A stretch of 64,000 bases of DNA from a virus. This document shows, piece after piece, positions 52,088-56,397 of the stretch. Each line of letters begins with the position of its first letter. The stretch's first letter is position 1. Location of the stretch: positions 1-64,000 of the IMG/VR virus record IMGVR_UViG_3300046332_000238. One strand, given 5' to 3'. The notes under the pieces are model-generated. The model saw only the letters and a program-made list of their open reading frames with translations, did no database searches and was not told where the DNA came from. The position numbers and the translations under genes were made by a program.

Positions 52088-54078
52088 ATGAGCAATGCAG
52101 TACGCAAAGGCAAACAAAACCGTCACGAGAAAATCACCGTAACCCTGTTGTCAGGCAAACCGGTTTCACCTGATGAAATCAAATCATGTTTTACTGGCAC
52201 AGACCAAGAATCGGTTCTGTATCGATTGTCCACTAATATCTATAACATTCGTCTTGATGGTGGTATCATCAAAGTAATTAAAGAAGGTCGTAAGGTTACT
52301 GGATATCAATTGGTGAACCATACAGAGTTTGATAAGAATGGTCGTTATGTTGGTCCAGTTGTTACACAAGCACCAGCACCTGTTGCAGATGTTACACCAG
52401 AGGTGGAATCAGTTGAATAAACGAGAGAGAGATAATACAAGATTTCTAATAACATCCGATTTAACTGCTCTTGCTGCATGGATTGACCAAGCAACTAATG
52501 ACGATATTAAATATGCCCTCGAATTGGCAAACACAGTACGATCAGAAATAGAAATCTATGAAATGGATCTTCAAGATGAAGTTGAAGATTTTACTGAAGC
52601 AAAATCGATTATTGATAGGATTAAAAATGTTTAGAAAATTTGCTAGTTGGATGAATGAAAATAATTCACAAGTTTCCTGGTTCTTCATTGGTTACTTCAT
52701 CAGTGAAGTATTTTCCTCTCTGTTAAAAGGTGACTATGTATGGGCTGCATGGTCGTTTGCCATAGTGATTATGAATTACATTGGTCGTAAACCTTGGGTT
52801 AGTTTGAATTGATGTTGCAGTAAAACAACAATGGTTGCCATTAACGGTGGCCATGATATAATGGTCACATAAACTGTTAAAAGGAGATAGTATGGCAACC
52901 CGTTCCGCAATTGGTATCGTTCGTGATGGTAAGATCGAAGGTGTATATTGTCACTGGGATGGTTATCCTGAACACCATGGTCACATCCTGTTGAATTATT
53001 ATGATGAGAATAAGACCAATGAACTAATGAATCACGGTTCACTTTCAGTGCTAGGACCAAATATTGGTGTCAAGCGTCACTTTAGTAATCCATATCCTTG
53101 GGGTACTCCTGCATATATTGCCGAAGAAGCATTGCATGAAGATACCTGTACATTTTATGGACGAGATCGTGGTGATGAAAATACGGCCTCGAAAACTTTT
53201 GATAGTGTTTCAGAATTTATGGATTATTACAGTGCCAGTGGTTCGGAATATTATTATCTTTTTAAAGAAGGCACTTGGTATTTGTTGCGTAATCCAGAAG
53301 AACTGGTTCCGTTGAATAAGATTGTTCCTAATGTTCGTGATGATTTAAAATAAGGATATATTATGTTAGAATTGTATCGTGGTTTGGTTGATATTATCGT
53401 TTCAAATTGCCGTGTACTAGAAGCAGATTTGATTCAACATATCCGCCGTGATGTAACAGCCAAAACTATTGCACCTAATACATTTGGTGTTTGTGGTTTT
53501 TGGAATTTGATGCTTGAAATAATTTTTGTAATGTTTGCAAAGATCACATTTGTTCTTGGTATTACTTTGACTAGTGTTTTGGCCATTCTATTCTTTCCAT
53601 TGAATGCTTTTATTCGTGCTTGTGCTACTGTATTCCGTACCAGTTCAGGTGAAATATATACATTGCCCGTTGAAAAAGAAACGAAACCTAAGGTGAAGTA
53701 ATGGCCATAACTAATCCATGGAGTGTTAATGGTGTAATACAAGACGATTATTCCTCAGCTTCTAGAGGTAGAATTGCTGACTTACCATATCCTGTTGAAC
53801 ATATTATTAATGGTAAAATGTTGATTGCTTCATATTCAATCATGGAATATAAATTTAGTGATCGCATACACATTGCTGGCCAGAAACAGACTGAAGATGA
53901 GATTAAAGATGAATTGTTGATGTTGTTGGTGAATGAAATGAAGAAATCAAACTTTATTGAATACACACGACAAATAGATATATTATCAGGTGCTGTTAAT
54001 TTCAAAGCAAGAATATTTGTGACACCTAACGATCAGGTAAGACTTATAAGAGAAATAGAACAGAGGAAAACAAAATGA
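52088..54078 (+). CDS. Six hypothetical ORFs (including 52892-53353, YCHWDGYP motif, and 53701-54078)
   Basis: ORF track, RBS, coupling. Confidence 0.55.
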
Positions 54079-54081
54079 AAA

Positions 54082-54741
54082 TTAATATAAAATACACCAA
54101 TTTTTATATGTCCTTCCTTTGTTAATAATTTCAGAAACACCACTTTTGTTTATATTGTAACATTTATAAAATACCCATCGAGTGCATTTTATTAATTCAC
54201 CAGTTTGTATATTGAAAAAACTATAAACTAAATTATCGAAACGTGAATTATTTTTAAAACTGTTATTTTTTAATTTGGCTTTTTCTGAACGAATTAATTT
54301 TAATTTATCCGACTTTTCTTTACCATATAATTCTTCGTATGATTTATTTTTGAATTTTTTTATTGCATTTTCTGATAATTTTTTCTTAACTTCGTTCGTG
54401 TGTGTTTTCCCGAACATACCATTTAATTCACCACACAATGTTGGACCCCTTTTTCCACCTGGAACTGTATTATAACCACCAACAATTGAATCATATTCAC
54501 TGATGAAATAAGATTCCATAACATTTAGTGTATGGTCTTTTTCTTTAGATTGATATAATACTTCCCATATAAAATTATTCCATCCATATTTTTTTATGGC
54601 ATTATAGAATTTTATATTGTTTTCTTTTTCTGATTCTCGTTTGTGGTCGGTTTTTCTTTTTGGCCAATGCGAATCAAAACCTATGTATCGTTGTTTTGTT
54701 ACAACATTGTAAGCGGAATAGATTGAATATATAGTTGACAC
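54082..54741 (-). mobile_element. Free-standing GIY-YIG homing endonuclease with NUMOD3-like motif
   Basis: SIYSAYN...RYIG, FYNAIKKYG, GYN, NGMFGKTHTNEVKKKLSE; antisense to neighbours, very AT-rich. Confidence 0.85.
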
Positions 54742-54763
54742 AGCTGTGTCCTTGTGATATAAT
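54735..54763 (+). promoter_or_regulatory. Perfect sigma70 promoter overlapping the endonuclease start codon
   Basis: TTGACA-17-TATAAT. Confidence 0.8.
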
Positions 54764-54808
54764 TTGACATAGAGTGAGTAGATGTTGACGCATCGTGACT
54801 CACATCCC

Positions 54809-54816
54809 TATTTATA
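54809..54816 (-). promoter_or_regulatory. T4-type late promoter for the endonuclease
   Basis: TATTTATA on plus = TATAAATA on minus, about 70 nt upstream of GTG. Confidence 0.75.
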
Positions 54817-54832
54817 TATTATGGAGAGTATT

Positions 54833-55804
54833 ATGTCTCAGAAAGGTAAAAAGGTCGGAAGCTTGCGTATTGCAATTGCTTCCGACCTGTAGCTGCATTT
54901 GGAGTTTGGTGACCTTGATTTGCATAATACAGATAATGCTGATGTGCTGATTCTTGGTGGTGATATTTTTGTCGCTAACGACCTTGTGAGTCTTGAAGAT
55001 TCCATTGAAATTGCAAAACTGGTACCAACACGAGCTCGTTTTCGTGCAGAGAAATTTTTTGATTTTGTAAAACGTTGCAGTGATCGGTTCCCTAAAGTAA
55101 TTTTGATTGCTGGTAATCATGAACATTATCATGGTGAGTTTCAGGATACATACAAAACAATCAAGAAAACCTTTAAAGAATTTACCAATGTGTATGTCTT
55201 GGATAAAGAATCGGTAGAACTTGATGGCACCATTTTTGTTGGTGGTACATTGTGGACTGATATGAACAAAGAAGATCCAATGACCATTCATGCAATTTCT
55301 GGTATGATGAATGACTTTAATTGTGTAACAAATGGCATAACACACCGTAAAGTGCCACTGTATAAAAAAGATGCATCGGGTGAATACATCATTGATGATA
55401 AACGTATTGGTTACATCGTAGATGGTTTTAAAATGAAAGAAGAACCTGCTAGATTTACTCCTAACCATGCGGTGGAAGACCACAAACAATTTCTTCAATA
55501 TTTGAAACTAGTAATGGAAAATAACACAGATAAAAAACCTGTTGTTGTTTGTTCTCACCATGCACCAAGTCGTCGCAGCACACATCCAAGGTATGCAGGA
55601 CAAACCCTGATGAATGGTGGATATAGTTCTGAATTGGACGAGTTCATTATGGATAGGCCAGATATCAAACTCTGGACTCATGGACATACACATGAACCTT
55701 TTGATTATATGGTTGGTGATACTCGTATCGTTTGCAATCCTCGCGGGTATAAAAATCATGAAAAGAGTGCAGATTATTTTGAGTTAAAATTTGTTGAAAT
55801 TTAA
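54833..55804 (+). CDS. Calcineurin-like metallophosphoesterase with in-frame TAG at 54890 (recoded or pseudogene)
   Basis: GGAGAG RBS, MSQKGKKVGSLRIAIASDL*LHLEF; GGD, GNHE, HHAP, HGHTH, NPRGY intact. Confidence 0.8.
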
Positions 55805-55813
55805 GGAGATAAA

Positions 55814-56266
55814 ATGAGTGTTACAATTAAGAATTTAGAAGCAGCATTTGCTGGTGAGAGTCAAGCACATACCAAGTACCGATATTTTGCTAAGATGGCA
55901 AGAGCACAAGGATTTGAAGATGTTGCAAAACATTTTGAACATACAGCAGAACAAGAACTACTTCATGCGTGGGGTCATTTGGAATTACTGATTGGTAAAC
56001 CAGATGTTAAACAGTGTCTTGAAATGGCCATTGAAGGTGAGACACACGAGTTCACTACAATGTATCCTACAATGCAATCAGAAGCAATTGCAGAAGGTGA
56101 TGAATTTGCTGCGAAAGAAGCAGCAGATCAAATTTTAGAAAGTAAAGAACACGCAGAACAATTTGCAACAGTTCTTGCTAAGGCAGAAAAACGTTTTAAT
56201 GCTTTGAAGAAAGTAGAACAACGTCACGCAGAAGCTTACACAAAAGTATTGGAGAATGTAAAATGA
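55814..56266 (+). CDS. Rubrerythrin-like di-iron protein
   Basis: NLEAAFAGESQA, EQELLHA, EGETHE, ESKEHA. Confidence 0.9.
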   Translation: MSVTIKNLEAAFAGESQAHTKYRYFAKMARAQGFEDVAKHFEHTAEQELLHAWGHLELLIGKPDVKQCLEMAIEGETHEFTTMYPTMQSEAIAEGDEFAAKEAADQILESKEHAEQFATVLAKAEKRFNALKKVEQRHAEAYTKVLENVK

Positions 56267-56397
56267 GCGAAACACATGTATGTGTAGTATGTGGTCATGA
56301 ACATGATGATCTAGTAGAGGGTGCATGGGGTACATTACCTGACGACTTTACTTGTCCTGAATGTGGTTGTGGTAAGGAAGAATACGAGTCAATTTAA
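56263..56397 (+). CDS. Rubredoxin, 44 aa (not in ORF track)
   Basis: HVCVVCGH...W..LPDDFTCPECG. Confidence 0.9.
   Translation: MSETHVCVVCGHEHDDLVEGAWGTLPDDFTCPECGCGKEEYESI

Follow-up and report, generated by a model that had tools for sequence, protein, structure and literature searches.

Introduction

How can a gene make its enzyme when a stop codon cuts through the first catalytic motif? A viral locus raises this question. It lies in the first 64,000 nucleotides (nt) of the IMG/VR record IMGVR_UViG_3300046332_000238, and we call this whole stretch the window. The gene in question encodes a calcineurin-like metallophosphoesterase (MPE). Near its 5' end, at positions 54890..54892 of the plus strand, an in-frame TAG stands between two identical CTG codons. 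The Asp of the metal-binding D-x-H motif precedes the stop and the His follows it. An earlier note on this DNA proposed that ribosomes hop from the first CTG to the second and thereby rebuild the motif.

Comparison with related loci supports this core claim. The arrangement recurs in other genomes, the codons on both sides of the stop are always CTN, the sequence behind the stop is under purifying selection, there is no conserved restart codon and the preceding RNA hairpin covaries. We consider it probable that the locus encodes a programmed +6 stop-hop that restores D-L-H, and that this hop is part of a homing-endonuclease-linked cassette like that of T4 gene 60 and mobA. Judged from sequence comparison, no explanation other than a programmed hop accounts for the whole of the comparative data. 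Most likely, the device, which recurs next to homing endonucleases, would be the first natural case of ribosomes hopping a stop.

A stop codon inside the first metal-binding motif

The gene start reads as follows. A sequence that reads as a ribosome-binding site, GGAGAG (54823-54828), is followed by an ATG at 54833 that is in frame with the MPE open reading frame (ORF) downstream; together the two span 54823..54835. From this ATG, 19 codons encode MSQKGKKVGSLRIAIASDL. Then comes the TAG, with C as the next base, and then LHLEFGDL and an ORF that remains open for about 300 codons up to the TAA at 55802-55804. The last codon before the stop is CTG (54887..54889), which we call the take-off codon. 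The first codon after it is again CTG (54893..54895), the landing codon. Behind it follow CAT, the codon for the His of D-x-H, and the remainder of the MPE ORF (54896..55804; all on the plus strand). The ribosome-binding site, start, stop, flanking codons and hairpin arms were thus all found where the earlier note had placed them.

The ORF behind the stop matches Pfam PF00149 (Metallophos, E = 1.5e-10) over profile positions 28-191. Because the match begins only at position 28, this ORF is devoid of motif I. The later motifs GD, GNHE and GHxH are retained. Motif I itself does not exist in any one frame: the DNA reads D-L-stop-L-H, and a skip of 6 nt is needed to make the motif whole.

The normal form of the gene is evident from its homologues. 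We collected 80 related viral loci (L001-L080), and the gene start was readable in all but one of them, L034. All 79 readable starts have the form M-[KR]-[IVL]-x-x-x-S-D-[LIV]-H-[LIV]-E-F and contain no stop, and the closest protein homologues look alike. Between D and H, 35 of the stop-free homologues have Ile, 25 have Val and 19 have Leu. Since every one of these loci reads plain S-D-x-H, the window has exactly 6 extra nt at motif I. Only a skip of 6 nt yields a product that is collinear with the homologues. The nearest relative, the stop-free L001, is 97% identical in protein and 95% identical in DNA, and reads MKIAVCSDIHLEF at the site.

The extra 6 nt are present in the virus. Three more metagenome runs from fresh water (X4, X5 and X7) have contigs that span position 54890 with 0 differences and 0 gaps. 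Because three further runs agree across the site, the TAG and the additional 6 nt are real DNA and not an assembly error. No RNA datasets that carry the site were found among the public runs listed.

Recurrence of the stop site

If the site were an accident of a single genome, it should not recur. We scanned viral and metagenome contigs with degenerate DNA patterns for S-D-x-stop-x-H-x-E-F that allowed any NTN codon on each side of the stop. The scans returned about three dozen contigs with 24 distinct stop-bearing MPE loci, all of which read SD-Leu(CTN)-stop-Leu(CTN)-His. Of these, 21 belong to the MPE family of the window (about 300 residues). The other three (L147, L163 and L143) belong to a second MPE family of about 181 residues, whose normal members start M-x-x-W/F-I-T-S-D-L-H-F-D-H. 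In this second family there is also a stop-free twin: P0123 has 181 residues, is 98% identical, and corresponds to 9 plus 172 residues of L147.

The downstream ORFs are intact wherever the contig permits a reading, with 247-302 codons in the first family and 172 in the second. All full-length stop-bearing ORFs contain GD, GNH[ED] and GHxH. There is one exception, L113, in which a +1 frameshift occurs about 55 codons past the stop, itself at 1823 (frame 0 ends in ...AFFRRV*, and frame +1 goes on with ...YPNVIYVMGNHE); the adjoining endonuclease is truncated as well. We return to this locus below. Hence stops between matched codons, together with a covarying hairpin (in 18 of 18 loci of the first set, see below), recur in diverged homologous loci, as the earlier note's proposal would have it.

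Two pattern scans of 185,579 species genomes gave no hit for the first family and a single chance match, L169, for the second. Three hits of an exact 21-mer scan (L103-L105) were discarded as chance matches on the opposite strand of an unrelated gene. In the records of cultured phages there were only distant stop-free relatives of the gene, and the cassette described below was unmatched. From these species-genome scans and phage records, no cultured carrier of a stop-bearing gene is known.

Over the 24 loci the stop is TAG in 17, TGA in 5 and TAA in 2. The take-off codon is CTT in 22 loci and CTA and CTG in one each. The pairs of take-off and landing codons are CTT/CTA (15 loci), CTT/CTC (4), CTT/CTT (3), CTA/CTA (1) and CTG/CTG (1, the window, where both flanks have jointly changed to CTG). 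All 48 flanking Leu codons are CTN and none is TTR, against a gene-wide Leu usage of 44% CTN and 56% TTR. The scan patterns permitted NTN on both sides, yet true MPE genes gave CTN/CTN only.

These constraints bear on the best surviving alternative, which is that the stop is simply read by a near-cognate or suppressor tRNA. The product would then contain D-L-X-L-H, and the enzyme would have to tolerate two extra residues in motif I. The base following the stop is always C, which makes for a weak termination context, and the frame remains open past the stop, as readthrough would need. However, three different stop codons are found at the site, and the genome in which the window lies contains no tRNA gene that could supply a suppressor. 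Readthrough also leaves unexplained why both neighbours are always CTN Leu codons and why the extra length is exactly one stop plus a copy of the preceding codon. The spacing of D-x-H is strict in all 79 readable stop-free loci. The known stimulators of readthrough sit 3' of the stop, whereas the structure here is 5'. We therefore regard readthrough as improbable.

The special case of a changed genetic code can be rejected. We found no tRNA genes in the 104.7-kb genome, and TAG terminates 21 of its 163 long ORFs, so that it is a normal stop elsewhere. Because TAG, TGA and TAA all occupy the site, one reassigned codon or one suppressor tRNA is ruled out. In the same genome, four stops lie between codons that share their first two bases. 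Only the stop in the MPE gene has the right shape; of the others, one is an ordinary gene start and two are unexamined.

A covarying hairpin before the stop

Directly upstream of the stop, the messenger RNA can fold into a hairpin (54852..54888, plus strand). Its 5' arm is AGGTCGGAAGC (54852-62) and its 3' arm is GCTTCCGACCT (54878-88), with an inner stem formed by 54863-66 and 54872-75. The arms are 11 nt each, 100% complementary and separated by 15 nt. The 3' arm consists of the codons for Ala-Ser-Asp and the first two bases of the take-off CTG. The predicted fold has a free energy of -25.1 kcal/mol (z = -4.76), and none of 200 shuffled sequences was as stable.

The same hairpin is found in all 18 stop-bearing loci of the first set, with energies of -19 to -25 kcal/mol and a mean minimum free energy of -21.2 kcal/mol. 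It is absent from the equivalent region of 50 distinct stop-free alleles, where the mean is -3.1 and the best value -8.4 kcal/mol. In the stop-bearing loci the 3' arm is always made up of the codons x-Ser-Asp and the beginning of the take-off codon, and in many of them the entire CUU is base-paired to an AAGG that lies upstream. All nine pairs of the core are present in each of the 18 sequences.

Changes in one arm are matched by changes in the other. For the 13 sequences that are in register, 92% of the cells of the alignment are paired, compared to 29-50% when the partners are slid, and three pairs change on both sides. The number of cells changed on both sides is 7, where shuffles give 2.7 and a value this high came up in just 2 of 500 of them. 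Compensatory swaps turn A-U into G-C in four sequences, G-C into A-U in L113 and L135, and G-C into C-G in L110 and L118. G.U pairs are frequent, which is compatible with the sense RNA strand only.

It is the RNA that is kept and not the peptide. In L118 and L122 the 5' arm is coded in another reading frame, and the peptides differ (GVGSL, GGRKL, VGRSL). In L146, L147 and L163 there is no N-terminal extension at all: the 5' arm lies at the start codon and the peptide has only 9 residues. Because the RNA is kept while peptide and frame vary, the N-terminal extension in the window would serve to encode the 5' arm rather than a peptide signal. The earlier note had also seen a Lys-rich nascent peptide as part of the signal. 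This part is not supported: the 19 residues include only 3 Lys, the peptide is not conserved, its frames differ and in three loci it is 9 residues long. Two further observations concern the same region. Nearly all loci have a purine-rich AAGG(A/T) immediately 5' of the hairpin; this motif forms pairs with the take-off CCUU and is also Shine-Dalgarno-like. In L143 and L155, a strong AAAGGAG with an out-of-frame ATG lies 30-45 nt upstream of the stop, in or near the hairpin's 5' arm; the ATG that is in frame lies 23 codons upstream.

A hairpin in this place could also act on the polymerase. The 6 nt would then be lost from the RNA, either because the polymerase realigns on the repeated CT under the nascent hairpin or because the transcript is cut and rejoined, and the mRNA itself would read D-L-H. 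The hairpin does sit where a terminator-like hairpin would act, TTT follows the stem in most loci, and transcriptional slippage stimulated by a stem-loop is a known phenomenon. Yet the repeat measures just 2-3 nt without a homopolymer run, and the run of T is missing in the window (CTGTAG) and in L109. Nor was a terminator-like site called: a search of 54000-55000 returned no intrinsic terminator. A loss at the RNA level would give the conserved stop, of whichever of the three kinds, no role, and we know of no precedent for such a 6-nt skip in RNA. All this makes the explanation highly improbable.

Selection downstream of the stop

If the gene were dead, the sequence behind the stop should evolve neutrally. 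This is not what we see. The ratio of nonsynonymous to synonymous substitutions (dN/dS) downstream of the stop is 0.08-0.22, at dS of 0.5-2.6, in five pairs in which both members carry the stop (L107/L128, L106/L108, L106/L107, L114/L125 and L122/L123); more distant stop/stop pairs are saturated at synonymous sites. Between the window and L001 dN/dS is 0.06, a value that proves little by itself because the allele is young (95% nucleotide identity to L001). As judged from these substitution patterns, the downstream sequence is translated and under purifying selection.

Translation could in principle begin anew behind the stop, for example at the TTG at 54899, where gene callers let their ORF start. 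No conserved restart codon was found across the stop-bearing loci compared. Behind the stop, the frame first offers an ATG, GTG or TTG at codon +89 in L106, at +18 in L107, L109 and L110, and at +3 in L108 and the window. The TTG at 54899 is not conserved, and we reject a restart there as a general mechanism. Because the downstream sequence appears to be translated without a conserved restart, because there is no tRNA gene and because TAG is an ordinary stop, ribosomes that start upstream must pass the stop.

That the endonuclease insertion left a pseudogene, or an N-terminally truncated protein made from TTG 54899 without its first metal ligand, is hardly credible: gene callers do annotate only the 301-residue ORF that starts at this TTG, L113 has an extra frameshift and the youth of the window allele weakens its own dN/dS as proof, but 24 diverged stop-bearing loci have intact ORFs (247-302 codons where the contig permits), stop/stop pairs have the low ratios given above with synonymous sites near saturation, the TTG is unconserved, and stop and hairpin are conserved instead of decaying.

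Homing endonucleases next to the stop site

The strongest context of the stop site is its link to homing endonucleases, which the earlier note did not contain. In the window, the link can be seen by comparison with L001. Positions 53793-54083 are 95% identical to L001 2689-2979, and the match ends with codons 1-3 of the L001 MPE gene. These three codons, ATG AAA ATT (54075..54083, plus strand), are the stranded original start of the MPE gene; they overlap the stop of the upstream gene and mark the left edge of a cassette. The cassette is 818 nt long (54084..54901) and replaces 24 nt of the L001-type allele, codons 4-11 (A V C S D I H L). In a BLAST comparison, L001 2980-3003 is unmatched, and homology restarts at 54902, which corresponds to L001 3004, again at 95%. 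The cassette contains an endonuclease gene, a promoter-like site, and a new ribosome-binding site, start and 5' gene end with hairpin and stop.

The endonuclease gene (54082..54741, minus strand) encodes 219 residues. It matches phrog_314 'homing endonuclease' (E = 7e-22) and phrog_5123 'GIY-YIG' (E = 5e-12), with a weak match to NUMOD3. The homologue in L108 matches Pfam GIY-YIG at E = 0.0046, which is below the curated cut-off. By these matches the ORF fits the class of intergenic free-standing GIY-YIG homing endonucleases. Over the last 115 residues, at the C-terminus, it is 55% identical to the enzyme of L123, while the N-terminal domains of the two are unrelated. The common C-terminal region suggests a common DNA target.

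Within 1.5 kb upstream, 14 of 17 stop-bearing loci have an endonuclease gene or a remnant of one, against 0 of 72 stop-free loci, as counted with the same queries, which were taken from the stop-bearing loci themselves. Different kinds of endonuclease occupy the position. Genes of the GIY-YIG type found in the window are directly upstream in L107, L108, L145, L146 and L162, and a second GIY-like family is upstream in L109, L114, L123 and L127. HNH genes precede the stop site in L110 and, at a distance of 645 nt, in L106. L163 has a NUMOD3-bearing ORF (Pfam 24.1 bits, cut-off 20.4), L143 and L155 have an unscanned look-alike of it, and L147 has a remnant. Endonuclease remnants are also found upstream in L112, L113, L115, L116 and L135.

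As a control, 105 ORFs upstream of the stop-free genes were assigned to PHROG families. The commonest were RegA, Hsp20 and clamp loader, and the 25 commonest included no family named as a homing endonuclease.

Presence of the endonuclease varies within two pairs, L107/L128 and L122/L123, and the stop is retained in all four loci. In the MPE tree, the gene of the window is the sister of L001, which has no stop (support 100). The other stop-bearing genes are distant from it, and at least three changes of state are needed. Because the window gene groups with L001, away from the other stop-bearing genes, the 5' module must have been transferred.

Not every endonuclease of this kind accompanies a stop. 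Two more GIY-YIG paralogues, 35-44% identical to the enzyme of the cassette, sit between ORFs elsewhere in the same genome, outside the window, at 67229-67837 (minus strand) and 90698-91447 (plus strand). The genes that adjoin them have no in-frame stop between matched codons. Among the endonuclease paralogues in L081-L102, none is at the 5' end of an MPE gene.

Discussion

A programmed hop would proceed as follows. The ribosome starts at ATG 54833 and would stall with CUG (Leu) in the P site and UAG, followed by C, in the A site. The peptidyl-tRNA-Leu would then leave the take-off codon and re-pair with the matching CUG 6 nt downstream. Decoding would restart at CAU (His), so that nine nt give a single Leu and the product reads ...SDLHLEF... 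with an intact metal-binding D-x-H. The expected junction peptide is ...IAIASDLHLEFGDL, while readthrough would give ...SDL-X-LHLEF. The hairpin probably refolds as the mRNA exits the ribosome, and would thereby drag the message forward and hide the take-off codon. That a hairpin takes part, as the earlier note proposed, agrees with its covariation and its absence from stop-free alleles; refolding as the driving force can be put forward as a suggestion.

The origin of the arrangement can be sketched in a similar way. An L001-like gene would have lost its first codons to a GIY-YIG endonuclease, a promoter and a new 5' end. The 6-nt insert probably breaks the target of the endonuclease in the DNA that codes for D-x-H, and would thus confer self-immunity, while the hop keeps the enzyme. 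One may go further and see in hairpin, CUN, stop and CUN a minimal portable module that needs no nascent-peptide signal and moves with endonucleases between unrelated MPE genes, with the insert as its mark of self-immunity and the hop as the price. We offer this extension tentatively and would not bet on it.

Several points weigh against a programmed hop and its link to endonucleases. At take-off, the 3' arm of the hairpin is inside the ribosome, and after a move of 6 nt much of it would still be inside, so that only partial pairing is possible. In 15 loci the codons are CTT and CTA and hence not identical; re-pairing would rely on one tRNA-Leu that reads both. Unstimulated stop-hops in E. coli have been described at a low level only (10.1101/2024.12.09.627546), and the hop proposed here is deduced from DNA sequence. 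The frameshift in L113 may mean that this copy is decaying, that the contig is in error or that a second recoding site exists there. The endonuclease count may be affected by the origin of its queries. In addition, 3 of the 105 control ORFs match PHROG 2297 'DNA endonuclease'; the best candidate for one of them, L050:2607-2966, has no nuclease domain in Pfam. Finally, the role in immunity, though likely, is argued from association and from the analogy to mobA.

How does the element compare to known systems? In T4 gene 60 and mobA, as here, take-off and landing codons can be read by one tRNA (CTN/CTN in 24 of 24 loci here) and a stop lies directly 3' of the take-off codon. Both have a 5' RNA structure, which is conserved, covarying and absent from stop-free alleles in our case, and in both the cassette is linked to a homing endonuclease. 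Gene 60 cassettes, too, are accompanied by varied endonuclease families at one site (Manning & Atkins, 10.1101/2022.08.31.505936).

The differences are equally clear. The ribosome moves 50 nt in gene 60 and would move 6 nt here. There is no stem-loop in the coding gap, no mini Shine-Dalgarno sequence before the landing codon and no conserved nascent-peptide signal; the first two are impossible because the gap consists of the stop codon alone. The hairpin abuts and includes the take-off codon, whereas in gene 60 it is 9 nt upstream. The host gene encodes a topoisomerase in T4 and an MPE here, and the MPE gene is not split in two. The cassettes have no sequence homology. Lacking homology, gap structures and a nascent-peptide signal, the element falls outside the gene 60 family. 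We would class it as a new variant of programmed bypassing.

Pairing of the exiting mRNA has been proposed to drive gene 60 bypassing by dragging the message out of the ribosome (PMC5009743; 10.1101/2024.12.09.627546). For the gene 60 5' stem-loop, Wills et al. noted 26 nt (10.1101/2024.12.09.627546). By analogy, their model would fit here: the loop of our hairpin lies 16-24 nt upstream of the P-site codon, which is close to 26 nt.

Hops over a stop between matched codons have precedents of an artificial kind. As later work summarizes the original studies, synthetic stop-hops work in E. coli reporters, with 9 nt decoded as one amino acid (Weiss, Dunn, Atkins and Gesteland 1987; O'Connor et al. 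1989, via PMC5009743 and 10.1101/2022.08.31.505936). By these summaries, they are low-level and have no stimulators, in contrast to the natural, deeply conserved arrangement described here, with its dedicated covarying hairpin. For natural in-frame stop hopping, a 2016 review stated that 'no occurences are known', though such cases had long been expected (PMC5009743). Cassettes of the gene 60 type were found in topoisomerase genes only in a 2022 survey (10.1101/2022.08.31.505936). The literature that we searched contains nothing that joins bypassing with metallophosphoesterases.

One other phage gene comes close. In Streptomyces phage Hau3's terminase gene, a 10-nt bypass over UUA that changes the frame is a candidate (PMC10732093). 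Like the element here, it is a short bypass in a phage gene with a slow codon in the A site and a proposed 5' stem-loop as stimulator. In contrast, its trigger is UUA, a rare sense codon, the frame changes, a regulatory role has been proposed and no link to a homing endonuclease is reported (PMC10732093).

As a mobile element, the cassette resembles the free-standing seg and mob endonucleases of T4-like phages. There, too, a conserved gene has acquired a GIY-YIG or HNH gene as its neighbour, the flank is co-converted (codons 4-11 and the new 5' end in the window), and presence or absence is polymorphic (L107/L128 and L122/L123). What differs is that the co-converted tract here carries an in-frame stop inside a catalytic motif, which is then kept by selection.

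If ribosomes do hop here, several consequences follow. Efficient natural bypassing in bacteria and phages, which previously rested on T4 gene 60 with its homologues in topoisomerase genes and on the Hau3 candidate, would gain a family of cases with natural variation: three stops, five codon pairings and hairpins with or without an N-terminal extension. For the mechanism, the system would be far simpler than gene 60 for following how peptidyl-tRNA is released and re-pairs and how refolding of the 5' mRNA acts as a forward drive. For evolution, bypassing would be tied to homing endonucleases a second time. For annotation, a gene whose catalytic motif contains an in-frame stop with matching codons on both sides is not necessarily a pseudogene. 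Should the portable module with its immunity mark be true, phage mobile elements would have a general strategy of disrupting an endonuclease target and making up for it by bypassing, and T4 gene 60 would be one example. In such a module, the hairpin would provide a clean natural test of whether exiting mRNA pulls the ribosome forward.

Other features of the window

Upstream of the new MPE start lies a promoter-like site of the sigma-70 type, TTGACA-17-TATAAT with a TG extension (54735..54763, plus strand). It matches the consensus in 12 of 12 positions and faces the MPE gene; consensus match is what defines it. Between this site and the ribosome-binding site, about 35 nt (54770-54804) recur in other metagenome contigs (runs X4, X5 and X7) with different flanks on both sides. 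This stretch resembles a short repeat with a regulatory or promoter-associated role, which phages share with each other or which is copied inside their genomes.

Upstream of the stop-free MPE genes in L001-L080, the neighbours include genes for the RegA translational repressor, Hsp20 and the clamp loader. This gene neighbourhood points to freshwater T4-like myoviruses as the carriers.

Within the MPE coding region of the window there is a near-palindrome of 22 nt with the centre GAGCTC (55024-55045). Directly downstream of the MPE gene, at 55814-56397, lie a rubrerythrin-like ORF (Pfam PF02915, E = 7e-16) and an ORF of 44 residues with two CxxC pairs. The latter looks rubredoxin-like, and such a rubrerythrin/rubredoxin-like pair would be unusual for a phage.

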